In this document: piece after piece, positions 46,529 to 61,235 of the stretch | Position numbering within the stretch: the stretch's first letter is position 1 | Layout of the letters: each line of letters opens with the position of its first letter | NCBI GenBank assembly: GCA_050246755.1 | Contig: JBFWVL010000001.1 | Coordinates: 96,001-160,000 of the forward strand | Direction: 5' to 3' | From: Bacteriovoracia bacterium | GTDB lineage: Bacteria; Bdellovibrionota; UBA1018; CAIPTA01 | Length of the DNA: 64,000 nt | Translations under genes and position numbers: made by a program | Notes under the pieces: model-generated | Seen by the model: the letters and a program-made list of their open reading frames with translations, nothing else | Databases searched by the model: none | What the model was told of the DNA's origin: nothing

Positions 46529-47197
46529 TTACCCTCTCCAGAAAATATAAATGGGGTTCAAGGCAAATCCGATCGCTACGGCCCAGCCGAATACTTGGCT
46601 CACGCAAAGCAAGGCCTTCTCTTTTCCGTTCGGCACCAGCCCCAGCGTCTGAATCGAGCTCCACAGGGCATGGCTTAAGTGCAGGCCCAGCACGAACAAG
46701 CAAACCAGGTACCAAGCCACGTAGCCGCCGCTGGCGAAGATTTCCGTCATCAAGCGATGCAGATCGCGGATTTCTTTTCCGTCGTGCTGGAAGGGATACT
46801 CCACCCCGAAGCGGAATTTAATTAGGTGCAAAATAATGAATACGAAAATCAGCAGCCCCGAGTACGCCATCGTCTTCGAACCGAGCGAAGCCTGGCCCTT
46901 CGTGCCCATTCCGGGATTCACCGCGTACCCCACCGGGCGCGCCTTTCTATTTTCTAGGGAAACCAAAATTCCCAAGATGGCGTGGGCCAATAAAGAAACC
47001 GCGAGCGCTACTTCCAGGGGATAATACAGGGCCTTATTCGCGGTGATATTATGCCCGTATGCGTTATACGCATCGGCGCTCACTAGATAGAGAAGGTTGC
47101 CGGCCATATGGGTGAAGACGAAGCCGCACCAAAATAAACCAGCAATGCCCATCAGCTGCTTCTTGCCGATGGATGAACAAAGATAGGCGCCCTTCAT
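46529..47197 (-). CDS. sdhC: Succinate dehydrogenase cytochrome b subunit (single 5-TM anchor)
   Basis: SSIGKK..M...G; four conserved His in TM helices; first gene of the sdhCAB operon. Confidence 0.9.
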
Positions 47198-47335
47198 ATA
47201 TTCCCCTTATGCGGTTGTGTGCGCTTTCTAAGATAGCATAAAGCCGGTTCATTTTGGACGGGTTCGCAAGATTGACGCGACTGGGCAACCCCAAAATATC
47301 CTGCACAGTGTGGATTTGTTTGGGATCATAAACCC

Positions 47336-47800
47336 ATGAAGGGTGAAAAGTTTTTCGACGTGAAAATGATCGCGCTGCTCATCGGCCTCGTTTTTCTGCT
47401 CGCCGCCATGGCCGCCCTCGGCGCGCCCTCCCTCGACAAACGCCTCTACTATACCGGCCTCGAAGCCCGCGAGTTCTTCTCCCGCCTTTCCGCGCAGGAT
47501 GCCGCCAACTACCGCCTCAACGAAATCATCGATCTCGGCTTCATCCTTCTCTATACCTTCACACTCGTGCTCACCTTCGTGCGCCTTTATCCCCGCTCCA
47601 AGCTCCTCTACTGGATCGCCTTCGCGCCGGCGGTTTTCGATCTCATCGAAACCGGTTCGATCCTTCACGTACTGAATTTCGGTGAGACATTTCCCGTGCT
47701 GAGCTGGCTGGGCGCGGCTACTTTTTTAAAGTGGGCCAGCACGGTGGTCGCGCTGGGACTGATTTTACGAGGTGGGTTGAGGAGGGTTAGTTTGGGGTGA
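47336..47800 (+). CDS. Hypothetical membrane protein
   Basis: Four hydrophobic segments; D.GFIL.Y and FDLIE motifs. Confidence 0.7.
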   Translation: MKGEKFFDVKMIALLIGLVFLLAAMAALGAPSLDKRLYYTGLEAREFFSRLSAQDAANYRLNEIIDLGFILLYTFTLVLTFVRLYPRSKLLYWIAFAPAVFDLIETGSILHVLNFGETFPVLSWLGAATFLKWASTVVALGLILRGGLRRVSLG

Positions 47801-47993
47801 GGGTTAGCTGGGATATTACCTGGCGCACGCAAACACATTGGCAAAGAGAGGTTGCGCGGCATTCTTCGTTTTGGTGCTATTGTCTCATGCGGTAGATCCT
47901 TCGGGTTTAGTGAGCGTAGCCAATAGCCAGCTAGACCAATTGAGGTAACGCACTTTTATTCACCAAATATTTTTATGCTTTCACCAATTTTAG

Positions 47994-48530
47994 CTAGAGC
48001 CCTACCACGGTTAACGGCCGATTGCCCACGCGCGTGATAAACTCCATCTTCTCTGTTTCAATTTGCCACTCTTTATCTACAAGGCGCAGTTGAAGTTCAT
48101 ATCCTGCCGTAGCACCATCCGAAGCCGTTTTTCGCAATCTGACAAAAAGTAGATCTCTTTTCTGCCAACAGAGAGACGAGATAGTTAAACGATTGTGCTT
48201 ATTTTTATCCCCAAAACCGCTCCTCAAAGATTGTCCCTTAAAAAGGGCAAATTCCTTATCTTTATAGAACCCTCTCAATGCTAAAAGAGTCGCCTCCATC
48301 TCTTCAGAAGAACTGTTATCGCTCAATAAAAATTCTTTCACCCCAGAATCTTTTGTTTTTTCTACAAAAAATTTATATGAGGCAATTTTTGCTTCTGCCG
48401 TCAAGCGCGCCTGTTCTTTCGAATCGCTATAAACGGAAGACTGGCATTTACGAGATGCGCCCTCTGCATCAAATCTCAAAAATATTGATGCCATCAAAAC
48501 TACGAAGCATACATTTAATCGCATTCTCAT
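47994..48530 (-). CDS. Secreted putative immunity protein ('LCWQ' family)
   Basis: Signal peptide; shares RL...AK, LCWQ and C-terminal strand pattern with 52466..52966. Confidence 0.6.
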   Translation of the reverse strand: MRMRLNVCFVVLMASIFLRFDAEGASRKCQSSVYSDSKEQARLTAEAKIASYKFFVEKTKDSGVKEFLLSDNSSSEEMEATLLALRGFYKDKEFALFKGQSLRSGFGDKNKHNRLTISSLCWQKRDLLFVRLRKTASDGATAGYELQLRLVDKEWQIETEKMEFITRVGNRPLTVVGL

Positions 48531-48551
48531 CTGGCACGAATAATTAGGGCG

Positions 48552-48992
48552 TTAATTCTTCGTTTGTTCGTTTTTCTTTGGAACTAAAGCCTTTGCGACT
48601 AGCTTATTCTTTTCCCGAAGCTCCACAATGAATGCATTGGGAGTTGCCAAAAAATTAACTCTGGCCGAATCGAACATGTGAGGTAAAGATCGGCTATTCT
48701 CATTATTCTGCTTAGACCGCTTAGCAAAAGACATATTTCCAGTTTGCTTCAAAAGCAGGAAGGCCGATTCAATTTCTTTTCCATTTTTATCTTTTAATAC
48801 TGCGCGCAGGTCTGTTGCAGCCGCGGACCTATGGTCTTCATCTGTTCTTTCGCGAGAATATGAAACTCTAGATAAATTTAAAGAAAATTTACCGTGGTCC
48901 TTGATCACAAGTCCCAGGATTGCGTCTTGCCCAGGCTCAATACCATGACTATTGAATGGAAAAAATAATAGACAAAAAATAATGAACTTCAT
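48552..48992 (-). CDS. Secreted hypothetical protein (putative immunity/accessory)
   Basis: Signal peptide; ATG overlaps the stop of the upstream remnant (ATGA). Confidence 0.6.
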   Translation of the reverse strand: MKFIIFCLLFFPFNSHGIEPGQDAILGLVIKDHGKFSLNLSRVSYSRERTDEDHRSAAATDLRAVLKDKNGKEIESAFLLLKQTGNMSFAKRSKQNNENSRSLPHMFDSARVNFLATPNAFIVELREKNKLVAKALVPKKNEQTKN

Positions 48993-49180
48993 TCTACCTC
49001 AAAGTTTAAATCTGCTGCGCCAGCCAATTTCAATCTAGACCATTCTCTAACTTTGATTGTTGACCAGCCGGAAGTTTTAGCTCCACTCCTAGAGCTTAGT
49101 TCCAGCCGTTTGACGTTCCTGAGAAAACCGGCCCACGCCAAATCCGTAAAAAGCCGCTTATACGCCCCTACCGACCAAAT
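48989..49180 (-). pseudogene. C-terminal remnant of an effector homologue
   Basis: Hand translation IWSVGAYKRLFTDL...KLAGAADLNFEVE* resembles the 53017 C-terminus (RWQVNVSLVPKR...VGRSAEINFSVP*); no convincing start codon/RBS. Confidence 0.5.
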
Positions 49181-49974
49181 TATTCTTTATCAAAAATCAA
49201 AATACCGAAGGCCCTGATCGTAGTAATGTCTTTTTTTACTCCAGAGAACGTGGCCTCATACTTTGTGCGCTTTAAAATCTCTCCAAGCTTAAAATCCGCC
49301 TGATTCTTCTTATTGTCATACAAATAGAGGTCGTTGTCGGCCAAGCCACTTTCAAGAAAAAGCGGCCGTGAACCTCCCGCTGACTGAGCTAGCTGGGCAC
49401 TACATTTAATTGTATCCGAGACGCCGCCCGCCCTAGAAACGATAACGCAATCTGGGGCCCGATAGAGCGCCGTAATCAGCTTGTTTCCCAAGCCGTCCAA
49501 TGCCTTTCTCGAAAAGAAAGCCGGAAAAGGCAGGATATATGAAACCTTCCGGCGCTGAACATACGCTTGAACCTCACCTTCTCCGCCATCGCCGGGGATA
49601 TTTTCAAGAGACTCGAACTCCAGCGGAAAAAGCATTATGAGCAAATAAAACACACTAAATGTAATAAAAAAAATCGGAAGAGCACTTCCCCGCACTTCGC
49701 GGAAAGCAGAAAACCTATAACGCCGCAGGCAAATCTGAAAAAATTTTACAAAGAAAAAAGCAAAGCTCGCCAGAACGCAGAGAAAAGAAATACCTTTAAA
49801 AAGGCTCGAAATAGGTACGGCAACCCAAAAATAATTGAAAAATACGAGAACTCCAAAAAATAAAATAGCCGGAATTTCAAAAACAAATAGAACCCAAAAA
49901 ATAGCGGTACTTAACAATAGAAAACTGACGTAATCCGAGCTTGGGTCTTTTAAAAATTTTCGAATTCTATTCAT
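49180..49974 (-). CDS. Membrane protein (N-terminal TMs + soluble C-terminal domain), putative immunity
   Basis: Phe-rich TM segments in the first ~115 aa; ATG overlaps the upstream remnant stop. Confidence 0.6.
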   Translation of the reverse strand: MNRIRKFLKDPSSDYVSFLLLSTAIFWVLFVFEIPAILFFGVLVFFNYFWVAVPISSLFKGISFLCVLASFAFFFVKFFQICLRRYRFSAFREVRGSALPIFFITFSVFYLLIMLFPLEFESLENIPGDGGEGEVQAYVQRRKVSYILPFPAFFSRKALDGLGNKLITALYRAPDCVIVSRAGGVSDTIKCSAQLAQSAGGSRPLFLESGLADNDLYLYDNKKNQADFKLGEILKRTKYEATFSGVKKDITTIRAFGILIFDKE

Positions 49975-50087
49975 ACCGCAATTATCTCTACGGCCCGACC
50001 ACGCATGCCGGAGGCATTTATCTTTTTAAGACTCAGTCGTCTTGTCACCAACTTAAAAGACAAATATTTAGAATCCACAAAATTCCC
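49971..50087 (-). pseudogene. Possible C-terminal remnant of an effector homologue
   Basis: GNFVDSKYLSFKLVTRRLSLKKINASGMRGRAVEIIAV*; ending resembles GRSAEINFSVP*; ATGA overlap with the next gene. Confidence 0.4.
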
Positions 50088-50098
50088 TTATCGACCAT

Positions 50099-50929
50099 CT
50101 ATTCGGCCCCGTACACTTCGATTTCACGCGTCCTGCCTTGCCCGAACCATTGAATTTTTCGAACGAGCTTTAATCCTAGCCGCGACGGCTGGTTTTTACT
50201 TAAAATTTCAACCATTGCCCTATTCGGAAAGGGGAGAACTCCCGGAAGAATCTCCCTAGAATAGACCACTGCGTCCACATGAAAATCTTTCAGGGCTAAC
50301 CGTGGCTCATTCTGACGATAAAAAAACAAAAAATATGAGGGCAGAAGAAGTAATGCTTCAAATGGTCGTATAAGAAACGCCAAAAAATAAAATACCGTAT
50401 AGCCCCACGCCTTCCCGGAGCAAAGGCAAGCTAGGGCAGATAGAGCAAAGGCGCAGAATGGCAGCTCAGACATGAATGCGCGGCTCATCCCCACGAAAAA
50501 TGGATACGTGCAGACGGTGGCTGCGCCCAGAGCGGCCGCGGCTTGGCTCAAACCCAAACCTCTTAAGACGGCCCTGCTACTGAACGTCGCTAACGCAAGT
50601 AAGGAGATGCCGAATAAAATAACCGCCGTTTCGATTGTTCCCGTTAGACAAAGAAACAAAGACCCTAGTATTGGGTGGTATGTTGAATATTGAATTTTTG
50701 AAGTAAGTAATTCATACAGCGCGGCGCCCAGTGGTCGAGTGGAAAATGTCTCCCTCCACCGGACGGCGTAGTTCCAATGGAGAAAATCATCGGATTGAAA
50801 GTCGAATGGGTTAAAATAAAAATATAGGCCAAGAAGGACACAAGGAAGAACGAGAAATATATTAGAGACCATGCACCTAAAAGAAGACTTCAGTAACGCA
50901 AATCCATTTGGGGGAAAATATGACTCCAT
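50099..50929 (-). pseudogene. Probably truncated GT-C (ArnT/PMT-like) membrane glycosyltransferase
   Basis: DD motif after TM1, RPLG, SRAFMSELPF, LIRP; only 276 aa, short for the family. Confidence 0.45.
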
Positions 50930-51059
50930 TTATCTCTTTATCCTTAAGAAAGAAAAATAAAAGACTAGGCCTACTGAAAATTCGGAATTATAAAAAATGA
51001 CAAAGAGTTCGCCCAACTAAGAACCTCCATGGCGACTCTTTTAAATTAAGAGGTCTTTA

Positions 51060-51200
51060 TTAATCTGCTATTCCTTGAGCGACTGCCTCTGAAATTAAAA
51101 TTTCTCCCTTCGCCTCACTTAATACAAACCCATAAATATACCCCTCATCACGATATTTTTTGGCCCCCAAGAATACTATAATTTTCTCGCCCACAGCCTG
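51060..51200 (-). pseudogene. 3' remnant paralogous to 52466..52966
   Basis: KKYRDEGYIYGFVLSEAKGEILISEAVAQGIAD* versus KKYRSGGGYFYRFVLSEVKGELLVSEAVAQGIGD*. Confidence 0.8.
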
Positions 51201-51299
51201 GTCGGAAAATCGAGAGAAGGTCAAAACCGAGTACCTTACAGCCGCCTAGCGTACAAATATTCTATCCCTGTAAAGAATACAGGCCCATCCTTCAGGAGG

Positions 51300-52034
51300 C
51301 TATTTTGCAGATTTCCCGAAGCAAGTTATGGGGGCTAAATCATTCCCATCAGGATCCAATTTAAAATCACAAGTCTGCGTTAGAAATAGCGAGTTGGTCG
51401 TAACGGCGCGGACATCCCATTTTCCGCCATTCCACTTTGGGAAAACCTCCCACATAAGATGCTTGGGATCGAAACCCCAAAGCATCGCCGCAAATCTCGA
51501 ATCAGAATAATACTTTGAAACCGCTAGTCTTGCTATCGCCTGCCTCTCGAGAGGTCTCATGCCTATTAAAGCCTGCGGCTCGCCAACATCTTCCCCATAA
51601 AACTCGTAGGACATGGGGCGCTTAACAATAAATAGCATGACGCAAAATAGCGCTATCGAGCCTAACAAAAAATATACATTTTTAATTCCACGGAAACTCG
51701 AGTCTCCATCGCGTGCAAAAAATAAAATAATAAATGCAGCACTCGCGGGAAGTGCAAATCCAGGAATCAAAAAAAGACTTGAGCTGGGCGAACCGTTAAA
51801 GTTTGAAATTAATTCAAATGAAAATATTAACAATGCATAAAACACCAATAAGATTCCAAAGAATGACGTTAAGGTATTCTTACTTGAGGAAAGTGAAATT
51901 TCTCTGCCGCTAAACGAAGATCGACTGAGTTTCTTCGATAAAAAGAGGGCAGCTATCACAAAAATGCTCGTGACCAATGAAAATACTAAACAGTATAGAA
52001 GTAGCCGAAACTCCTGTGATAAAAATGCCCTCAT
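51300..52034 (-). CDS. 4-TM membrane protein with soluble C-terminal domain, putative immunity
   Basis: Four hydrophobic helices, then a domain with two Cys; ATGA overlap with the 52031..52228 remnant. Confidence 0.6.
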   Translation of the reverse strand: MRAFLSQEFRLLLYCLVFSLVTSIFVIAALFLSKKLSRSSFSGREISLSSSKNTLTSFFGILLVFYALLIFSFELISNFNGSPSSSLFLIPGFALPASAAFIILFFARDGDSSFRGIKNVYFLLGSIALFCVMLFIVKRPMSYEFYGEDVGEPQALIGMRPLERQAIARLAVSKYYSDSRFAAMLWGFDPKHLMWEVFPKWNGGKWDVRAVTTNSLFLTQTCDFKLDPDGNDLAPITCFGKSAK

Positions 52035-52228
52035 GGTATTATGGTAATCAACCTTTCTACACTTGCCCCGAACGACTTCCGCTCTTCTTGGATTTTCATC
52101 TCAAGTAAGTAAATTCTGGATTCCAAAACCAAGAGCCTCGCTTGTATGCGACTAATTTTATCTGAGTTAGTTTTTGTGACATTGGCGGGAGAAACAAGAC
52201 CAGCTTGCCGAGTCAGAAAATTTTTCAA
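52031..52228 (-). pseudogene. C-terminal remnant of an effector homologue
   Basis: SDKISRIQARLLVLESRI...EERKSFGASVERLITIIP* aligns with PDRRLEIESQILILSRRI...ELEKEVGRSAEINFSVP*; an in-frame stop lies just upstream. Confidence 0.7.
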
Positions 52229-52249
52229 AAAAATTCACCGATTTTTAAA

Positions 52250-52369
52250 TTTATTCCCAACATCTATTTAGATGAAGCACTTTGCCGTGCGATTATTGCA
52301 GAAGATAACTCTTATGCTGAAATCCTCGTAAAACAGGGGGCAACGTCACCATGTGTCTCTAACCCCTAA
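52250..52369 (+). pseudogene. Ankyrin-repeat-like gene fragment
   Basis: LDEALCRAIIAEDNSYAEILVKQGA fits the ankyrin pattern (AL..A......A..Lh..GA). Confidence 0.4.
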
Positions 52370-52465
52370 GAGGCAAAATCCAAAAGCTATAATTTTCCCG
52401 AAAACTCTGCGCCCACTGACGACGGCAAAGCTTCAGCCAAATGAACTACTACTCTATGATATTCG

Positions 52466-52966
52466 CTAATCCCCGATCCCCTGAGCAACTGCTTCTGACA
52501 CCAAAAGCTCTCCCTTTACCTCACTCAACACAAATCGATAAAAATAGCCGCCGCCACTACGATACTTCTTCGATCCACCCACCAATATGTTTTTCTCAGC
52601 CTGCCAACATAGAAAATCAATCCCAATTACAATGACGCCCTTACCAGCATCAGGAATTGACGAATATCCACCTGCATAAAAAGTCTGGCCTTTAAACTTC
52701 TTAGATAACCTAGAAACGTAGAGATGCTCATCTGCATTTTTCTCTAGAGTACGATCAACAAGACCTATTTTTTTTATTTCAGTGGGCAAATTTTCAGCCA
52801 ACCAAAAAAAAACTTTCTCTTTCGCCTGGCTTTCAAGCCGAAATCTAACCGACGGCTTAACCTTTAAATCATTGACCTTTAAACACCCAGCATGGCCAGT
52901 AACACTGCATAAAAACAAAAGAAAAATAGCAAAATATTTTTTATACCAATTAACCATAAATGACAT
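52466..52966 (-). CDS. Secreted putative cognate immunity protein ('LCWQ' family)
   Basis: GAGG RBS, signal peptide; lies directly downstream of the metalloprotease gene. Confidence 0.65.
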   Translation of the reverse strand: MSFMVNWYKKYFAIFLLFLCSVTGHAGCLKVNDLKVKPSVRFRLESQAKEKVFFWLAENLPTEIKKIGLVDRTLEKNADEHLYVSRLSKKFKGQTFYAGGYSSIPDAGKGVIVIGIDFLCWQAEKNILVGGSKKYRSGGGYFYRFVLSEVKGELLVSEAVAQGIGD

Positions 52967-53016
52967 ATTACCCTCAATGACAACATCACGGTAATAAATT
53001 AAGTATGGATCACCAA

Positions 53017-56000
53017 CTATGGAACGGAAAAATTAATTTCTGCGCTTCGCCCTACTTCTTTTTCCAGCTCAGCCCCCTGAGACCTCGCGTTAGCAATTCG
53101 CCTAGATAAAATTAGAATCTGGCTCTCTATTTCCAACCGCCTATCAGGATCATTTTCATCTCTTAATCTCGACCGAAGATCAAATATATCTTGCCGCCAA
53201 GAAGCAATCGCAGACCTTAGTGCAAACCAAGGACGCTTAGGCACAAGACTCACATTCACCTGCCATCTATGACTTCCCGACACAAGCCTGAATGACTCTG
53301 CCTCTAGATATCGCTCATGATGCTTAGGTTCGACCCTAGTCCCGTCATAAAATACATTATAAACAAACATATATTCGGGATTTTCGGGAGACTTGACGAA
53401 ATCCGCCCTCAGCCTATTTCGTCCTCCTACAATATTACCTCCATCAGTATCGAGAACCACGAAAGGGCTCGGATCCTCCAATACTGGCGGCTCTAAAGCA
53501 CTTAGCCTAACAAAGGCACCAGCAATTTGTTTTCCAATTTCATGCTTACCAGCATCCAAATAGGAGTCAGCCAGAAATGAATCTACAAGCAGGCTCGACG
53601 CAAGTGGTGCCAATTGTTTACTTAGTATCTGTTTAGCTAATGAAATTTTCCGCGCCAAAACAGCAGCCCGCAATCTAGATATCTCCGCTGACAACTTTGC
53701 TCGTCCAGAGATTGCATTAACAATAAAAGCTCGATCTGGAATGTATTTAACCTCTTCATCTATTAAATCAGCTGGTATAACCACCGAGCCTAATTTAACT
53801 TTTCCATTTAAGTTATCTCGAAAAATATCTACGAATACGCCATTCGCAGTGACAGGAACAGTAAATTCCAACTCAGGCGAACCCCCAGGGAGGTTGATAT
53901 CCTCCTTTGCCGCAAATCTCGAAGATGAAATTAATTCATTGGAAATAGTCTTTAACTCAACGAGGTATTCCCCGTCGGAGTTGCTAGGAACTTCGCGATT
54001 TGAATATAAAACATACGTGCTAAACCTATTAAATACGTTTTGACTAATATTTCCTGAAATCAGAATTTGGCTCCCAGGAAAGTTCATGGTCACTTTTTGC
54101 GGACCTGGTATATTTCTTCTAAAGACCTGCACATAATCATTATAAGAAAACCAAAAAGGATTGGGGTCTATATATGGCTGAGCTGGGTCAATGCTATATT
54201 CATTCGACTGCCCTTGCATCATTACATCAATTTGGGCAAGCCTTTTTCCGCGACCTATCTCAATTGGTATAGAAAAATCATAGTTAGAATACCCCTCAAA
54301 TCTAGCTTGGGGATTAAGTGGATCAATAATTCGAGGAGCATGCCATCCCTCTTCGCCGGAGGGTGGCGAGCAGCCGGTTCTACTATCGAATCTAATACAA
54401 AAAGTGTGCCCCAGCTCATGCGCCAAACTTTTAATCAAACCACTCTGCACATGAAAAGCAGGCTCATCAAAGTTGGCCAGTCCAACCGAGTCATGAAGTT
54501 CGTGCGGCGAAGGAAACTTCTGATGAAAGTAGTTATTGGAAACAATCCCAACAAGATGAGTGATCGTCGTATCATTATAAAATTCAGTGGAATTTTCTTT
54601 ATCTACTAGCGCTTTAAGAATATTTCGATCATTTTGAATATCTAACACATCTCCCGTACCCCATACTTTTCCAATTAAAAAATCTCTAGTGAAATCTGTG
54701 TCCGCAGCCGGATAAAGTTGCTTCAAATATGGAAATCCGCCAAAAATGGAAGTCTCATAGGAAAATTCATCTGGCACCTTTGGCTCCGGACCCTTCTCAA
54801 AGCCAGTTCTAACAAAGCCGAGATGAAGGGGCTTTGTTTTTCTAACTCTGACAATAATTTTTCTTTCGGAAATAATTCCGTTTTCTGAATTCCTTAAAAC
54901 GACGTGCATTGTCTTGTTAAGACCGAGAAATGCGCTAGTGGCTGGAACAGGATTTATCTCAAATGTGACGGTTGAACTCCCGCTTTCATCTGTGATTACT
55001 GGATTTGGATGTAAAGTGATCCCATTCCATTCCATGGTCGATTTTGCAATATCGACAGCGGCATTTATTCCCGAAACCACTACATCAGCATTCTTTCCTG
55101 CCACCAGATCTACCTCTTGACCATTACAGAAAGATGTATACTGGCCGGAGCAAAGATTTGGATTTTCAACCACTTGAAACACCGAATACTCACCGGGATA
55201 AGGCTTCACATAATAGGCCGAGTAACCAGAATGGTTTGGATTTGAAGAATGGAGTCGAAATGCGGCTTCACCTTTATTATTGAAAGCACCGGCGTAGAAG
55301 GCAATGCTTAGAAAAGCTTCTGTATTTTCTGATATTGCTTTTGGATTAGCCAACATTATCGGATCTCTACCGAGCGCAAAATTGTAGAGTGCGGGTCCGT
55401 TGAAAGCACTAGCAGAAGTCGCTACTTCGTCGTTATCGTTGATTGAAAAATCATGAAGATCACACGGGAAATCGGGGTTGAGATAGCCAAATCCGGTAAA
55501 AGGAGAACTTAGGCTATCTACGTCTTCCCTCGCGTATGTTCTAGCAAGTTCTTCCACAAATCTATTTCCGGCTGAATACCTGGAAAGCAAAAGAAACTGC
55601 TGTCTTGTTGCTCCAATCATCCTAGTGCCAGAAAAAACAACAGATCCCTTGGAATTAATATCAGCACCTCCAAGGCAAATATTATCAAAATGAATTGAAC
55701 CCAAATTGGTAGGAATGGCCTCAAGAAAATTCGCCGAATTCCTAACTACTATCTCGTCAGTATTTCCCGTTCTTCTCTTATACATGAGCCAGCCATTGTC
55801 TTTCACAATAGGTTCGCCGACTATAGTCGCTGGGCGTGCGCCTTGATCCACAAACTCTAGACCGTTACCAGACGAAAAATAGATAGCGGTGGTTCGATAG
55901 CCTGCATCACTAGGATGTAAATCAACTAAAAAAGCCTGCGCAGAACCGGAGGGAGACACACTATGACCGCGAATTGCTTGAACTCTCAAATTATTTCCAG

Positions 56001-56439
56001 CAGCACCAGCGTCAACCAAGGTCTCATAATAGAGCTGTGCACTAGGCGAACTACCATTGTTTGTGAACGAGTAGACACCCCTTCCCCATCCATCTGGTGC
56101 GGTCGGAATTCCTACGGTAGGTGTAGTTATTCCATAAAATGTTCCATTGTCATCAAATGAAAGGCTCGGCAAAAAACTATTACTAAATCCAATTATCGGA
56201 ACGGGCGTCGTAAGAGGAAATTCACTCCCAATATAAAGGAGTTCATTGGCAGAATTTACGGCAACTTGACCACCATTATTTAAAGCAGGCGTTCCGTCTC
56301 TATTCTGAAATGCCGAAATCTCTTTTCCATTATATTCTAACCGAGTTCCGGGAAGCACGAGTTCAGTTTTATAGGCGTAGAATGGAGCTGCTGTCGCGCA
56401 TAGAGGAAGAAGCGCTACAAGAAAGAATACTCCTCTCAT
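53017..56439 (-). CDS. Large secreted protein: NxxGxxAF-type propeller repeats + HExxH zinc metalloprotease + C-terminal helical-hairpin/beta-sandwich module
   Basis: Start 56439 (ATGA overlap). LNNGGQVA, INSKGSVVF, INDNDEVA, FNNKGEAAF repeats; DLVAGK; SLAHELGHTF and DVMM (Met-turn-like). Confidence 0.75.
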   Translation of the reverse strand: MRGVFFLVALLPLCATAAPFYAYKTELVLPGTRLEYNGKEISAFQNRDGTPALNNGGQVAVNSANELLYIGSEFPLTTPVPIIGFSNSFLPSLSFDDNGTFYGITTPTVGIPTAPDGWGRGVYSFTNNGSSPSAQLYYETLVDAGAAGNNLRVQAIRGHSVSPSGSAQAFLVDLHPSDAGYRTTAIYFSSGNGLEFVDQGARPATIVGEPIVKDNGWLMYKRRTGNTDEIVVRNSANFLEAIPTNLGSIHFDNICLGGADINSKGSVVFSGTRMIGATRQQFLLLSRYSAGNRFVEELARTYAREDVDSLSSPFTGFGYLNPDFPCDLHDFSINDNDEVATSASAFNGPALYNFALGRDPIMLANPKAISENTEAFLSIAFYAGAFNNKGEAAFRLHSSNPNHSGYSAYYVKPYPGEYSVFQVVENPNLCSGQYTSFCNGQEVDLVAGKNADVVVSGINAAVDIAKSTMEWNGITLHPNPVITDESGSSTVTFEINPVPATSAFLGLNKTMHVVLRNSENGIISERKIIVRVRKTKPLHLGFVRTGFEKGPEPKVPDEFSYETSIFGGFPYLKQLYPAADTDFTRDFLIGKVWGTGDVLDIQNDRNILKALVDKENSTEFYNDTTITHLVGIVSNNYFHQKFPSPHELHDSVGLANFDEPAFHVQSGLIKSLAHELGHTFCIRFDSRTGCSPPSGEEGWHAPRIIDPLNPQARFEGYSNYDFSIPIEIGRGKRLAQIDVMMQGQSNEYSIDPAQPYIDPNPFWFSYNDYVQVFRRNIPGPQKVTMNFPGSQILISGNISQNVFNRFSTYVLYSNREVPSNSDGEYLVELKTISNELISSSRFAAKEDINLPGGSPELEFTVPVTANGVFVDIFRDNLNGKVKLGSVVIPADLIDEEVKYIPDRAFIVNAISGRAKLSAEISRLRAAVLARKISLAKQILSKQLAPLASSLLVDSFLADSYLDAGKHEIGKQIAGAFVRLSALEPPVLEDPSPFVVLDTDGGNIVGGRNRLRADFVKSPENPEYMFVYNVFYDGTRVEPKHHERYLEAESFRLVSGSHRWQVNVSLVPKRPWFALRSAIASWRQDIFDLRSRLRDENDPDRRLEIESQILILSRRIANARSQGAELEKEVGRSAEINFSVP

Positions 56440-59315
56440 TTTCCCCTCCCAGCCGCACCGCAAGCATCAGCGAAATCAAGCGTACATGCCCGTTGCCACA
56501 ATCTCGTCTTCGTGAAATCGTCGCCGTCTTCGGAATACATATTTCCTAGCTCGTAACAAGCACCGCCGTCGCCGGGAGGCGCCCAGCAGGCGTTGGTCAG
56601 CAGCTGCCTCTTAGCTTCACGCTCGCCGTCATACGGAAGATCGAGCTTCTTTTTTGCCAGCGGTGGCGCTCCGCTAACATTCACCGTCACGAAGGTGAAT
56701 ACGAGGTTGCCATCGTTATCCACCACGGCGAGGTTAACTCCGTAAGTACCCGGTGTTTCGTACACGTGAGAAGCCACGGCCGTCGTCGTCTCCTCCGATC
56801 CATCGCCCCAGTTCCAGCTGTAGCTGGCAATGGTTCCATCATAGTCATAAGATTCCAAGCCGTTCACATTGAGCGTGAAGGGAGCAACGCCCGAGAGCGC
56901 GCCATTACGAATGATCGCTCTAGGGGCATGGCCCGCATTCACGTTGAATACTTCCATAAAAGCCCTCTGCGGCGGCGTGAAGCCAACACCCGAGGTCACC
57001 CCCATGCTCACAAAATAATTGCGCGCGAGCGGATAGGTATAGTTCACGAACTGCCCGTTCGCGATGCCTTGCCCGTCGGGATTTAGGAAATCCGAGAAGC
57101 GCCAGTTCCAGTTAATGATGGTCCCGCCGACATTGGGATTCACGGCGTAGCTTCCGTTGAAGCTCAAGGGTGTGCCAAGGAGGACTTCGCGAGGCGGCCC
57201 GACCACAAACTGATTCACGGGCGCCATGCTGCCGCTGATTCCCGGCTGCACAAGGATAATAGCCTCTCCTTCAGCTCCATAAGCATCTCTCGTGCGGAGA
57301 CGGACATTGTAGTTTCCGGAAGCATTGTAAGCGTGAGTGACTACTGGGTCGGTAGTCACGGTCTCGCCAAACGCATCGCCGAAATTCCAGCGGTACTGCA
57401 CGATTCCGTCCGAGTCGCTCGCCTCCGACGCGTCGAACGTTACGGTGCGGGGAAAAGATCCGAGCAGGCCACTCACCCGAAATTTTGCGGTAGGCATATC
57501 GGTATCCGTAATCACCACCGTGATATTGGCCGACGTGGTGGCGCCGAGGTTATCGGTGGCCGTGAAAGTGGCGTTATAAGTGCCGGTAGCTGGGTAGTTG
57601 TGCAGAATAAAGGCAGCGGCGGTATCAAACGTGCGTTCACGGGTTCCGTCGCCAAAATCCCACCACATGGATTCGATCGTTCCGTCGGGGTCGGTTACGC
57701 CGCCGACCGCCAATGCAAGAGCTAGCCTTACCTGGAAAGGTGCGCCAGGCGTTTTCTGGTTAACGAAGGGAGCAGCGCCCAGCACGGGAGGAAAGTTCGC
57801 CACTACCGACACGGGAATGGAAACAACGGTGCTAAGTGGAGGGGTGCCGTTATCAACAATGGTTACTTCGAGAGTGTCGGTACCTTCGTTCTCACCAGCC
57901 TGGAAACTAACAAGGCCAGCGGAAGAAACGGAGGCGGTTCCGTATGCGCTTTGCTTCGTCACGAAGAAAGAGCGCACCTGCCAGAAATCCGCGTCGGCCG
58001 AAGTGATTTGGCTGGTTCTCGTCGCATTGATCCCGGCGGTGATCGAAGGAGCGGATCCCGTGGGCGCGCGGTTAGCGGGGGCGCTCACTTCAACGACGGC
58101 AAGCGAAATATTGCCGGTCATGAAGGGAGTGGTGGTTTCCGCGATACGCATTTCCATCACGTAGTAGCCAGGAACGTCCGGCGTGAAACTGTAATTTACG
58201 TCCGTGCTCACGGGATCGGTATTGATCGCGAGCGCGGAACCGGTTGGTTTCGAGATCAAGCGCCACTCGAAGGCAAGGGGCTGGTCATTCACGTCGTGGG
58301 AATTAACCGCGGTTACTTGCGCCCCTTCTCCGAGAGCGATCGGGCTGGCCACGGCTTCGGCAATTCCGATCGGCGCGGTGGGTGGAATATAGGGCTCGGG
58401 AACGATTACGGTGTCGTTCGTGGCAAAAAACGCATTTTTACGAATTGCATTCTTCACGACTCCGCCCGAGGTAAAGCGAATCTCCACGTCTTTGCTGCCT
58501 TCGGTGGAAAACACGGGAGTATTGAGCGTGATGCTCGTGGAGCCAGAGCTCGTAACGGCCGTCGTAATGCCGCCAAGTTTTACTTCGGGGCTAGAACCAA
58601 AATTGGCGCCAGAGATCGTGATCGTGGTACCACCCGCGGCGGCCACGAGGTGGGGCGTTACGTCGGAAATTCTCGGGAAATCCGTTCCGGTCGTTTGCTC
58701 CACCACGTTGAACGAAATGCTTTCTTCGCCCACGGGGGATTTTAGGGAGGCGAGAGCGGCCACGAGCTGGTTCTTGAGCGAAACCTTCTCGTCGCGCTGG
58801 GCCGTAAGCTGGGCGATCTCGGTGGGGTCGGTCGCGGCCGCGATGGCGGCGTTTAGAGAAACAATATCGGCCTCGAGCGAAACGATCGCGTCGCGGATTT
58901 GCACGGCCTGGGCTTTGTCCTGGATAAACATCGAGGCCAGGAAGGTATGCGATTTGATTTCGGTTAAGGCGCCGGCATCATAGATCCACATCTCTTGGGA
59001 AGGATGCTCGAGAGCAACGGTGGCGCCATCGAATTTACCTTCGAGCAGCACTTCACTATCCGTAAATCCCGTATTGGGAATGAGGTAGAGGCTCACGTGA
59101 TCGCCCTGGGCGGGAGTATTCGAAGGAGACACGAATATTCGCACCAGGGGATCACTCAGCTTCTTGATCTTGAGAGTCCGGTCTCTCTTGGCTTTCTCCA
59201 TCTTGGCGATGAGAGTTTTTACCTTAATATTCGTTACCGAACCCTTTGCCGCAAAGGCGGCATCGGCGAAGTTTGCAACGCAGAGAGAGAGCACTAATAA
59301 AATGATTTTTTTCAT
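56436..59315 (-). CDS. Secreted PKD/IPT-TIG/Ig-repeat adhesin-like protein
   Basis: Signal peptide, hairpin module, IPT (GGTTITISGANFG), WDFGDG/WNFGD/WRFSD/WNWGDG PKD repeats, C-terminal Cys-paired Sel1/Hcp-like repeat. Confidence 0.85.
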   Translation of the reverse strand: MKKIILLVLSLCVANFADAAFAAKGSVTNIKVKTLIAKMEKAKRDRTLKIKKLSDPLVRIFVSPSNTPAQGDHVSLYLIPNTGFTDSEVLLEGKFDGATVALEHPSQEMWIYDAGALTEIKSHTFLASMFIQDKAQAVQIRDAIVSLEADIVSLNAAIAAATDPTEIAQLTAQRDEKVSLKNQLVAALASLKSPVGEESISFNVVEQTTGTDFPRISDVTPHLVAAAGGTTITISGANFGSSPEVKLGGITTAVTSSGSTSITLNTPVFSTEGSKDVEIRFTSGGVVKNAIRKNAFFATNDTVIVPEPYIPPTAPIGIAEAVASPIALGEGAQVTAVNSHDVNDQPLAFEWRLISKPTGSALAINTDPVSTDVNYSFTPDVPGYYVMEMRIAETTTPFMTGNISLAVVEVSAPANRAPTGSAPSITAGINATRTSQITSADADFWQVRSFFVTKQSAYGTASVSSAGLVSFQAGENEGTDTLEVTIVDNGTPPLSTVVSIPVSVVANFPPVLGAAPFVNQKTPGAPFQVRLALALAVGGVTDPDGTIESMWWDFGDGTRERTFDTAAAFILHNYPATGTYNATFTATDNLGATTSANITVVITDTDMPTAKFRVSGLLGSFPRTVTFDASEASDSDGIVQYRWNFGDAFGETVTTDPVVTHAYNASGNYNVRLRTRDAYGAEGEAIILVQPGISGSMAPVNQFVVGPPREVLLGTPLSFNGSYAVNPNVGGTIINWNWRFSDFLNPDGQGIANGQFVNYTYPLARNYFVSMGVTSGVGFTPPQRAFMEVFNVNAGHAPRAIIRNGALSGVAPFTLNVNGLESYDYDGTIASYSWNWGDGSEETTTAVASHVYETPGTYGVNLAVVDNDGNLVFTFVTVNVSGAPPLAKKKLDLPYDGEREAKRQLLTNACWAPPGDGGACYELGNMYSEDGDDFTKTRLWQRACTLDFADACGAAGRGK

Positions 59316-59327
59316 GTCCGGGGTTCC

Positions 59328-59837
59328 TTAGTTCAAATTGGTAAAAGAAGAGAAATTGTAGGTCTCGCGGCCGATTCTATTTTTGAGGCCTTCTAGCTCC
59401 GCCTGGAGCCGCGTTTGGAGTTGGAGATTTTTATTGAGCTCGGCCTCAAGGGCGGCGAGGTCATCTGGGTCAGAGGTTTCGGCGATCTCGGCGCGGAGGC
59501 TTGCAATCGTTTGCTCTGTTACTTTTAGAGATTCAGAGAGGCGATCGGTTTGCCGGGCGTCGGCCAAGGAGATCAGAAAAGAAATCGCGTGGGCGCCGTT
59601 TCCTGGAACTTTAAATACCCAGAGGTCTTTGGCGGGATGCTCGAGGGTCGCAGGGTAGCCATCAAAGTTGGCGTCGAGCACCACGTAGGACTTTTCAAAA
59701 TTCGTGTTGGCGCGGATGAAGAGATTCACCTGCCCGTTCGCGGCCCGATTTTCCGAAATACTAAGAAAAGAACTGGTTTTTGGGCCGGCCAAGGCCGCAA
59801 AAGGCAAAAAGAGGCAAAGCAGTGCAATAAATTTCAT
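59328..59837 (-). CDS. Small secreted protein consisting only of the hairpin/beta-sandwich module
   Basis: GAGG RBS, signal peptide; NTNF...FDG...LEHP...W and SDPDD hairpin shared with the 56436..59315 N-terminus. Confidence 0.8.
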   Translation of the reverse strand: MKFIALLCLFLPFAALAGPKTSSFLSISENRAANGQVNLFIRANTNFEKSYVVLDANFDGYPATLEHPAKDLWVFKVPGNGAHAISFLISLADARQTDRLSESLKVTEQTIASLRAEIAETSDPDDLAALEAELNKNLQLQTRLQAELEGLKNRIGRETYNFSSFTNLN

Positions 59838-59846
59838 ATTTTCCTC

Positions 59847-60839
59847 TTACTGGGCCGTGAGGGTGATGGATACGGGCTGGCCCACGGGGGTGCGAACCTC
59901 GGCGAGGTGCGCGCGCGTGGAATTGAGCAAAGCTTGATTGCGGTCGATCTCGGCCTGGATGGCGGCGATCTCGGTAGGGTTCGTGGTATTGCCAAGAGCG
60001 GTGGTCAGGCGAGTGATCTCGGCCACGTAGAAATTAATGGCGTCGTTGAGGGATTTGGCCTCTTTCTTGTTTTGTAGAAACAAGCTGGCCACGAACTCTT
60101 GGTCGCCCGCTACGAGGGGAGAAGTGGTCCCGTAGCTCTGGCTATCGGTGATGCGCGTGAGGGGGAGATCGGATCCGGCAAAAGAGGCCGAAACGTAGAA
60201 TTCGAAATTAGAATTCGTGGGTCCGTTTCTCGTGGTGAGAAGCACGGTGGCCTTTGCGCCAACGGCGTAGCTCGGCTGGTCGGCGCTCAGAATAAGATTA
60301 TAGGTGGGAGTTGGTACGGGGTGCGGCTGGTAGCCCGGAAGGATTTCGATTCCGTTCACGAGGGCGTCCCCCACTACGCTCGCGAAATTGAGGTTGATCA
60401 CGCCGGATGGATTGGCGTTTACGGTAAACTCCCTCACGGTGGCGATCCCGATGCCCCCGGTCGCGCCCACGATATCGAAGTTGGTTAAAACCTGGGAGCC
60501 ATTGATACCGATGTTGAAAATACGGGAGCCGCCCGTGGTGTGATAGAGCTCCGCGAAATGAAGGCGAACGAGGTGGGCTGCGCCGGCCTCGAGGCCAGGG
60601 ATCGCGTAGGAGAAGTTTCCGTAGCGGCAGGTTTGGTAAACGGCGAGCGGCGCGGGGTTCGTTACTTGGCTTGCGTTGATCGGGATGCCGGTGGTGTAAG
60701 GGGTTCCGCCGCTAAAGTACTGGTCGGCGGTATAGTTTCCATTCGCCACCACCGTGCCGGCACCGATTGCGATCGGAGAGTCGGCGTGAGCAAAAGTGCT
60801 GCAGAAGAAAAGAGCGAGCGCCAAGCAGGAACGGAACAT
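59847..60839 (-). CDS. Secreted malectin-domain protein with C-terminal hairpin/beta-sandwich module
   Basis: GGAGG RBS; VYQTCRYG, VRLHFAELY, RIFNIGING, NFDIV, ALVNGIEI are malectin motifs. Confidence 0.85.
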   Translation of the reverse strand: MFRSCLALALFFCSTFAHADSPIAIGAGTVVANGNYTADQYFSGGTPYTTGIPINASQVTNPAPLAVYQTCRYGNFSYAIPGLEAGAAHLVRLHFAELYHTTGGSRIFNIGINGSQVLTNFDIVGATGGIGIATVREFTVNANPSGVINLNFASVVGDALVNGIEILPGYQPHPVPTPTYNLILSADQPSYAVGAKATVLLTTRNGPTNSNFEFYVSASFAGSDLPLTRITDSQSYGTTSPLVAGDQEFVASLFLQNKKEAKSLNDAINFYVAEITRLTTALGNTTNPTEIAAIQAEIDRNQALLNSTRAHLAEVRTPVGQPVSITLTAQ

Positions 60840-61235
60840 GAGCAACCCTCCATAGGTAGCAAAAATCACCAACCACCATGTTGGCGCACTCGACTTTCAG
60901 GCGAGATTTAAATTCGAAGGAGATAGGAACACGAAATAAACTAATCCGGCAATATCTTTTTTTTAGGCTAAAAGAGATTTAATATTCGTCCGAACTGGCT
61001 GCATTGCAACTAATGCGGCGAGAAATATACCGAAAAAAATTTACTTTTTTTCCCGTGAGAAATGATGATTTCTCGCTAGGCAGAGTGGCTGGTGTTTTTT
61101 CTAAAGAAACGAAGAAAAGACCGCACGCATTAAACTCGATGCGGCAGAATTCTTCCTACACGGTGAGAGGCGCGCGATAGCCGGAAAATAGAAAGGGCGG
61201 AGCAACTAGTGCCCCGCCCCCGCTAAGTACAATCT

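Follow-up and report, generated by a model that had tools for sequence, protein, structure and literature searches.

Arrays of orphan genes that carry the scars of displaced effectors are a hallmark of bacterial conflict systems, and to our knowledge such arrays have so far been tied to known machines: type VI secretion (T6SS), contact-dependent inhibition (CDI), Rhs and type VII secretion (T7SS). The locus considered here lies in a Bacteriovoracia bacterium, a member of a phylum known for predation, on a stretch of 64,000 nucleotides (nt) of contig JBFWVL010000001.1 (the window), and is read on the minus strand throughout. Genes are labelled by a letter and their number of residues, and the term D-type is coined for a long protein that carries at its extreme C-terminus an immunoglobulin (Ig)-plus-hairpin module shared with its neighbors. 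An intact D-type gene, D1148 (53017..56463), and its small secreted partner E166 (52466..52966, starting 50 nt after D1148) head an array of leftover cassettes, in which at least two short fragments appear to be 3′ tips of module-bearing genes joined to the genes downstream. The best-supported reading, which we consider likely, is that units of a large secreted protein and a partner gene were displaced one after another and left 3′ scars. The protein families and the shared module are undescribed and constitute what is new here, the displacement process being already known; no description of orphan arrays or of the module in Bdellovibrio or the Bdellovibrionota was found in the literature.

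For the T6SS arrays of Vibrio cholerae, the parts of the published account considered here describe new effector-immunity modules that insert via upstream homology with an illegitimate downstream end; the old effector is displaced while its immunity gene is retained, and one of the steps described shifts the old effector's 3′ end back (Kirchberger et al., 2017; PMC5361080). Set against those parts, the window fits the scheme point by point: one intact effector-like gene stands behind conserved genes and is followed by unrelated small orphans and 3′ remnants, the mechanism proposed is the same, and composition and strain variation at the present locus are compatible with import. It differs in that the proteins here carry Sec-type signal peptides (judged by eye) and in that the conserved genes encode four module-sharing secreted proteins of no known family. 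Of the 14 locus proteins scanned, none matched a T6SS family in Pfam; T6SS genes elsewhere in the genome were not searched for.

The orphans of the CDI (cdiA-CT/cdiI) and Rhs systems, as far as the portions of two reports used here describe them (PMC3150448; PMC3967940), are alike in that start-less 3′ fragments and intact small genes lie downstream of a full-length gene and in that a piece of a stretch shared by the family is retained in the fragments. In those portions a variable C-terminal toxin follows the conserved part and the orphan still encodes a toxin domain that recombination can re-arm, whereas here the variable body is upstream and lost, and the orphan consists of the tip of a conserved C-terminal module and a partner gene. 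The order of CDI, Rhs and MafB proteins, with conserved N-terminal delivery and a variable C-terminal toxin, is not the one found: the D-type module is C-terminal and the bodies differ. A preliminary description of this DNA had presented the retained conserved tip as the reverse of that architecture. The domain order is indeed a mirror image, but this does not make it a different process, for what is kept is merely the 3′ end, as in CDI/Rhs and V. cholerae. The orphans here are not re-armable as toxins, so that the partner alone could remain of use, in keeping with a protective role but no proof of one. Self-protection has been described in Bdellovibrio, where the ankyrin-type Bd3460 stands beside secreted lytic enzymes (PMC4686830). 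As presented in the part of that report considered, it is similar in placing a small protective protein of a predator lineage beside a secreted hydrolase, the role proposed below for the partners, and dissimilar in being one conserved pair of known folds and tested function; arrays, stubs and a shared module do not appear in that part.

Stubs at the starts of partner genes

The preliminary description held that three genes, F244 (51300..52034), H264 (49180..49974) and I146 (48552..48992), each start in an ATGA overlap with the stop codon of a short fragment lacking a convincing start, and that these fragments resemble the end of D1148. The three overlaps and their coordinates are correct. The fragments are stub1 (52031..52234), a stop-to-stop frame of 67 residues that meets F244 at ...ATA CCA TGA / ATG AGG; stub2 (49971..50087), a 38-residue open frame that fills the spacer between G276 and H264 and meets the latter at ...GCG GTA TGA / ATG AAT; and stub3 (48989..49186), a stop-to-stop frame of 65 residues that meets I146 at ...GTA GAA TGA / ATG AAG. 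The ATGA by itself is weak evidence because only a second codon beginning with A is needed; it is also present between C959 and D1148, and between an intact D-type gene and its partner in a relative (G004), and being the usual junction of the operon it is therefore unremarkable alone.

A hidden Markov model (HMM) of D-type tips was built from 16 tips of other genomes and metagenomes, none from the source genome (G000) itself. With it stub1 scores 25.2 bits over positions 31–69 of 75 (about 52055–52171), a stretch that extends from the turn through the second helix to where the last strand begins, and it matches the G of the module's 'VG' motif. The expectation value (E) is 1.3e-7 over 208 local six-frame segments and 5.9e-5 over the 97,309 segments of the genome, among which stub1 ranks seventh, above three of the nine real modules. 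Stub1 also reaches 13.7 bits with a 177-sequence profile, and when it is aligned by Smith-Waterman with four reference tips (2000 shuffles) the p values are 0.002, 0.001, 0.0015 and, for the last, 0.095. HMMs made from the source genome's own nine modules give 8–12 bits for stub1 and nothing for stub2 or stub3. By this homology stub1 is a genuine 3′ remnant of a D-type gene that was displaced.

The likeness of stub3 is confined to its last ~22 codons (48992–49057, ...RLKLAGAADLNFEVE), which fit the final strand of the module, and Smith-Waterman alignment was significant against one of the four tips (p 0.0135). An end-anchored profile of the module's last 22 columns was prepared from 170 sequences, none of them from the source genome, with width and offset fixed beforehand, and every frame end in the genome was scored. 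The end of stub3 ranks ninth among 78,502 frame ends, with five true modules and three other frames higher. Within the set of 2,684 frames coupled by a stop-start overlap to an open frame of 100 codons it comes first, its score of 10.0 being followed by one of 0.4. When its last 26 residues were shuffled 20,000 times, no shuffle attained its anchored score. For comparison, the verified stubs of a relative score 7.0 and 10.4 on the first version of the anchored profile; with a noisier anchored profile made from the 16 tips, stub3 ranks 169 of 78,502. Judged by this end, stub3 is probably a decayed 3′ remnant of which the last ~22 codons are left. Stub2 is indistinguishable from chance, with no HMM match, Smith-Waterman p values of 0.23–0.65, anchored ranks of 4,200 of 78,502 and 151 of 2,684, and a shuffle p of 0.26. 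The module HMM and shuffled controls that the preliminary description had proposed as a check consequently uphold the likeness to the D1148 end for stub1 (HMM and Smith-Waterman) and for stub3 (anchored profile and shuffles), above both shuffles and genome-wide controls, and not for stub2; the ranking given there, with stub1 strongest and stub2 weakest, holds.

Further stubs were found in relatives by scanning 9,403 six-frame segments of 19 loci with a D-tip HMM built without any stub. Short module-end frames there lie immediately upstream of small secreted genes: two in G004, a member of the same genus by its placement (53.2 and 39.4 bits, both running into the start of the gene that follows), one in G006 (34.6 bits, overlapping a K-family gene by 13 nt) and one in G007 (18.5 bits, abutting a 209-residue gene). 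A 22-codon remnant lies 6 nt before another small gene of the same G004 array (13.9 bits, E 0.024), and an isolated frame of G004 (L017, 31.6 bits) is without an adjacent downstream gene in the open reading frame (ORF) map. The stubs of relatives range from 22 to 94 residues and have no common start. In G004, a 68-codon stub is 46% identical to the D1148 tip (E 8.8e-14) and its stop overlaps the start of a 168-residue gene of the E166/J178 family, and a second stub, with 37.5% identity to that tip (E 7e-5), shares its end with the start of a 149-residue homolog of I146. That homolog is the best found for I146 (27.7% identity over 137 residues, E 1.2e-6); I146 homologs were found only in G004, and the I family is present in two of nine genomes of the taxonomic family, the source genome included. 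The expectation that homologs of the orphans lie behind module-bearing genes is therefore borne out, the E/J family standing behind intact D1148 here and behind the 68-residue stub in G004, and the I146 homolog behind the second G004 stub. The G004 array is low in GC (0.40–0.44 vs. 0.52–0.59 in its flanks), and the small-gene families that it shares with the window stand in a different order. The same genome offers an intact case, in which a 1167-residue D-type gene (GC 0.435) comes after the end of a C-type gene (GC 0.55) and shares a 4-nt stop overlap with a 214-residue secreted partner (GC 0.39); after the partner GC is back to 0.57–0.59, so that the pair has DNA of normal GC on both sides.

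The window shows the same compositional contrast. GC at third codon positions (GC3) is 0.73 in A341, 0.59 in B169, 0.65 in C959, 0.69 in sdhC and 0.76 in sdhA, and 0.35–0.47 in every gene from D1148 (0.35) to J178 (0.40), which together form a low-GC3 island. C959 is the last gene with native base composition, and the break falls at the ATGA junction where its stop overlaps the D1148 ATG at 56439. Behind E166 the island holds stub1 and F244, a membrane protein with a C-terminal soluble part; frag54 (51060..51245); G276 (50099..50929), a multi-pass membrane protein; stub2 and H264, a membrane protein paralogous to F244; stub3 and I146, a small secreted protein of the I family; and J178 (47994..48530), an orphan second copy of the E/J family and the last gene. 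At its distal edge (47807..47808) GC rises.

Public sequencing runs were compared with the window as contigs: X1, the probable source of the window, and X2 from one study, X3 from another, and X4. The contigs of X2 hold pieces identical to the window. In X3, one contig matches 46000–47807 with 59 differences in 1,808 bases (96.7%) and continues into unlike AT-rich sequence, its match ending at the distal edge of the island; a second contig (54,970 nt, of similar depth) matches only 51244..52173, with 18 differences in 930 bases (98%). These 930 bases comprise F244 with 56 bases after it and 139 before it, and nothing else of the island was matched in X3. Among the contigs of one other study, then, cassette content varies and one flank is conserved. 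The F244 cassette is a discrete unit, unlike the window beyond both ends, and the frame upstream of it continues in X3 where stub1 of the window breaks off. Upstream, the match ends at 52173, in codon 21 of the stub1 frame, and the HMM alignments of stub1 begin at its residues 21–22. Read by hand in the stub frame, the next 30 bases of X3 give nine sense codons (LMLRRALKK) and turn codon 21 into Glu, and the resulting ...LKK-E-T-N-S-D-K... restores the E-T-D-P-type turn of the family and the end of the first helix. Neither loose end, at 52173 or at 51244, was found in the source genome at up to 3 mismatches. Two joints of low depth were also seen, 52234->46414 in X4 (depth 2) and 47652->48498 in X2 (side 31, depth 3.1); either assembly noise or structural variation within the island could account for them.

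Other remnants occur in the source genome. M318 and M176 (C1:32000–37100; L001 6000–11100) match positions 749–980 and 812–996 of the D-type profile (E 2.5e-21 and 3.2e-20), have no signal peptide by eye and each overlap a small secreted gene of the K family; GC at this locus is 0.38–0.45, and IS-type transposase genes lie between the two. By these matches they appear to be longer D-type 3′ remnants of the same kind as the stubs. Partner genes leave 3′ scars too, as follows from frag54, a start-less frame of 61 codons between F244 and G276 that represents the 3′ fragment of a second E166-like gene. Over the last 43 residues of E166 it shows 67% identity (E 2.7e-14), it scores 22.7 bits with the E/J-family HMM (genome-wide E 4e-4), and at its upper end it meets 51244, where the X3 F244 cassette has its downstream edge. 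The remnants of 318, 176, ~45 and ~22 codons would represent dated 'fossils' of scar decay. Another candidate stub, C1:28476–28676 (12.8 bits with the first HMM), was rejected, its match consisting of ~25 coiled-coil columns only and reaching 9–10 bits with the D-tip HMMs.

Proposed serial displacement and its alternatives

Under serial displacement, a D-type gene and its tight small secreted or membrane partner, often ATGA-joined, would form an exchangeable unit of low GC. New units would be inserted behind the conserved A–C genes, with the downstream crossover inside the 3′ end of the resident D gene, and each insertion would move the old partner downstream, fused to the last codons of the old D gene. 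The present array would then read as intact D1148 with E166, followed by stub1 with F244, frag54, G276, H264 (whose D-gene tip would no longer be recognizable, if one ever existed), stub3 with I146, and J178. The tips would be scars that decay with age, kept because they abut the start of a partner gene; that they encode the conserved module would reflect nothing but what a D-type gene has at its 3′ end. Homology-facilitated illegitimate recombination anchored in the A–C genes is the mechanism favored, and the order of insertions, like the mechanism, is inferred. As for the serial replacement proposed in the preliminary description, an array of leftover cassettes with at least two fragments that are probably 3′ tips of module-bearing genes joined to downstream genes is supported by homology, controls, relatives and X3; stub2 drops out of it.

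The stubs might be nothing but coincidence, open frames running across AT-rich spacers with an ATGA supplied by any second codon starting with A and with a chance C-terminal likeness. Stub2 behaves exactly so, the three stubs show no resemblance when compared with each other (p 0.13–0.99), first-pass BLASTP gave nothing significant for any of them, and stub3 is without an HMM match. For stub1, however, chance is already refuted by rank 7 of 97,309 with a profile free of source-genome sequence; the end of stub3 stands far ahead of all others in the 2,684 coupled frames, with no shuffle equal to it, and unmistakable stubs occupy the same position in relatives, which leaves coincidence a very improbable account of the whole. 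Somewhat less improbable, although still unlikely, is duplication and decay in place, whereby a D gene and its partner were tandemly duplicated within the genome and the D bodies deleted later, with no foreign import. The paralogy in the array would agree with it (E166 and frag54 are 67% identical, E166 and J178 belong to one family, and so do F244 and H264), as would the similar low GC3 across the array genes. It does not sit well with at least four unrelated partner families, with stubs that at the DNA level are unlike each other and unlike the D1148 tip, or with the sharp difference in GC3 between the whole island and the adjoining A–C genes; moreover X3 has the F244 cassette in different surroundings and departs from the window where the island ends, and G004 has the same small-gene families in a different order.

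Two further explanations would give the stubs a present function. Orphan Rhs modules are activated by recombination in Salmonella, according to the part of that work considered (PMC3967940), and the stubs could likewise be kept as homology handles, recombination with the expressed D tip deleting the intervening genes and bringing in a new partner. Each stub stands exactly at the junction where a crossover would be needed, and the native ATGA coupling is kept at the junction of stub and partner; yet no direct repeat in 47900–56500 is longer than 33 nt at 73% identity and none joins the D1148 tip to a stub, protein-level identity between the stubs and that tip is low, and stub3 and stub2 are largely decayed, all of which makes such switching scarcely credible. 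The remaining explanation takes the fragments for translated leader or coupling peptides that control the downstream gene, the likeness to the module being a by-product. ATGA overlaps, which are typical of translational coupling, are present at all three fragments, TTG starts occur at 52228 and 49141, and ahead of the I146 start the GAG GTA that encodes 'E-V' can also be read as a Shine-Dalgarno-like GAGG. Against this, the start codons are poor, the homologous frame in X3 continues upstream past the point where stub1 breaks off, the stubs of relatives have neither a common length nor a common start, and half a hairpin with one strand would be unlikely, from the B169 model described below, to fold alone; functional short ORFs are accordingly a highly implausible origin.

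Serial displacement itself has several points against it. The pattern comprises two stubs and not three; stub3 matches no HMM, including the 16-tip and 177-sequence profiles, and its case consists of 22 residues and their context. There is no repeat long enough for homologous recombination between the D1148 tip and the stubs. The contigs of the sequencing runs cannot show absence, those of X3 and X4 having no cover over D1148/E166 and most of the array, and upstream of the X3 breakpoint 30 bases were seen, which falls short of a full-length D gene. The orphan array of G004 has no A–D operon beside it within the 18 kb examined, and relatives of the 'same genus' are ~37–50% identical in their C-type proteins, a loose orthology. 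The pairing of F244 and H264 with D-type genes is uncheckable by comparison, these two having no relatives elsewhere. As to function, neither Pfam nor NCBIfam recognized a toxin or immunity domain in the 14, 17 and 11 proteins scanned, and the AlphaFold2 model of D1148 (5 sequences) has a mean pLDDT of 40.5, with residues 541–798 below 50, too poor for recognizing a protease fold.

The shared module, the large proteins and their partners

About 155 residues are common to A341, B169, C959 and D1148 (BLASTP E 6e-23 to 5e-4). A341 (59847..60872) is a secreted malectin-domain protein (Pfam Malectin, E 2.1e-19) that ends in the module (207.7 bits), B169 (59328..59837) consists of a signal peptide and the module alone (157.9 bits), and C959 (56436..59315) has the module at its N-terminus (194.8 bits), followed by TIG and four PKD domains (PKD_4 E 2.2e-49, TIG 6.8e-9). 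D1148 comprises a signal peptide, NxxGxxAF-like repeats, a central HExxH and the C-terminal module (53020–53538, 209.6 bits). In the AlphaFold2 model of B169 (42 sequences, mean pLDDT 92.1) an Ig-like sandwich is combined with two helices (94–120 and 124–150) that meet at a conserved T-D-P turn before the last strand (153–164). Pfam has no model for the module. Foldseek with the B169 model against the PDB gave no match at E <= 0.001 and only generic Ig-like domains, and an exhaustive structural alignment search with the module returned a flat list of generic helical hairpins with Z ~10 and no specific PDB match. Nine copies were found in the source genome, including those of a paralogous operon at C1:823.5–831.7 kb and of M318/M176 at C1:32–37 kb. 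A profile search of 1.84 billion representatives found 440 module proteins at E <= 0.001, and the module is present in 22 of 401 sampled genomes of the phylum, the source genome counted. When a g113 module protein was compared with genome contigs, matches were confined to its unrelated C-terminal repeat domain, in other phyla. Module genes usually stand in runs of four to six neighbors, and the module may be N-terminal, standalone, doubled or at the extreme C-terminus of long proteins; from this distribution across neighboring genes we infer that it mediates the assembly of the operon products. The paralogous operon (L002, C1:823536–831663) comprises A2 (344 residues), C2 (1051 residues), D2 (1299 residues, without HExxH) and an overlapping secreted gene of 189 residues, and has neither a B-type gene nor an array.

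In type IX secretion systems (T9SS), a C-terminal Ig-like domain serves the sorting or anchoring of surface proteins. The present module resembles such 'choice-of-anchor'/T9SS C-terminal domains in being a conserved beta-sandwich at the extreme C-terminus of varied secreted proteins, and a D-type relative matches the NxxGxxAF 'choice-of-anchor' repeat TIGR05002 (E 1e-5, 25.4 bits, below the cut-off of 50). Unlike them, it has a long helical hairpin and no specific PDB match, and it also occurs N-terminally (C959), alone (B169) and doubled.

D1148 has no sequence match in Pfam, NCBIfam or the PDB, and a search of genome contigs with it found none. Proteins related to it along most of its length are P0143 (29% identity over 1140 columns), P0074, P0117 and P0152. 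All four have HELxH as in D1148, and H682, E683, H686 and E705 are invariant in the five aligned sequences; no such motif is present in P0006, P0022, P0045 and P0067. The HExxH with its downstream Glu suggests that D1148 is a zinc protease, and D-type proteins would then be zinc-protease effectors whose bodies, in these alignments, seem to vary while the C-terminal module stays. The true start of D1148 is probably the ATG at 56439 and not the TTG at 56463 of the ORF list; the representative in the protein library has 1140 residues, in agreement with it, and this ATG follows a GGGAGGGG stretch, forms the ATGA with the C959 stop and begins a typical signal peptide (MRGVFFLVALL...). In front of it, the C-type protein ends in a Cys-rich motif, …AC…ACY.LG.MY..(D/E)GD……C.LG…AC (window 56436–56700, L026 2–274 and L019 10500–10644), which is Sel1-type-like by eye and, unlike the D gene behind it, is kept across genera.

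The E/J family of partners comprises E166, J178, frag54 and the 168-residue gene of G004, and the models nearest to E166 in the ESM Atlas are NTF2-like at TM 0.4–0.6, which is a lead only. A complex prediction for D1148 426–900 and E166 27–166 (score 0.04, mark 0.32) weighs neither way on binding. F244 and H264 share 30% identity over 103 residues (E 2.8e-4); no other relative of F244 was found among 5.8 billion proteins of similar length, longer and shorter ones being outside the search, and its copy in the ESM Atlas begins at residue 26. Metagenome contigs gave no match to F244 or P0152. Among five relatives, the E/J family was found in one, which is the sequence already in the alignment, and the F/H family in none. 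G276 weakly matches NF046093 of NCBIfam, a family concerned with forming cell-surface glycopolymers, at E 1.4e-4 and 21.2 bits where the cut-off is 150. Neither Pfam nor NCBIfam gave a family at significant E for E166, F244, G276, H264, I146, J178 or 17 partner proteins of related loci. The partner proteins may be kept as protective, immunity-like factors, a possibility that we hold only tentatively. K-family partners (L001 7777–8235; L016 8885–9343, 12383–12883 and 14667–15182) show C-x(4)-P...(A/S)D-x-(I/V)F-x-G after the signal peptide; their N-termini recall, presumably, TIMP/NTR metalloprotease inhibitors, to which Pfam gave no match.

Other features were noted in and around these loci. 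A small two-gene pair on the plus strand borders the orphan array of G004 (L016 7047–7608, G004:C14) and is taken by us to recall toxin-antitoxin pairs of the BrnT/BrnA type. In G007, a D-type gene and its small partner are followed, a few hundred bases downstream, by a frame of 102 residues (L020 14232–14540, G007:C39) whose repeats (…YDQAGN…, …YDEIDQ…) are YD/Rhs-like and which, judged by eye, may be an Rhs fragment in the same variable region. Promoter-like sites (8 vs. 9.6 ± 2.5 in shuffles) and terminator-like sites (12 vs. 7.2 ± 2.0) gave nothing usable, an Rfam scan of 47000–57000 found no family, and the DNA upstream of the partner genes has nothing in common except between E166 and G276 (p 0.003).

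Possible meaning for the lineage

A wider proposal can be built on these elements, namely that they belong to an undescribed polymorphic effector system in which A, B and C serve as scaffolds and interchangeable D-type effectors assemble with them via the C-terminal module, cassettes of foreign composition being swapped at a fixed junction and orphan islands shielding the cell against the effectors of former kin. We regard this as rather doubtful; if true, it would point to an interbacterial arms race of predator against predator that proceeds without a known secretion-system toxin architecture. The footprint of displaced units provides a way to track down proteins of effector-like or protective kind in such genomes, and it hints at a role for the operons that share the module.

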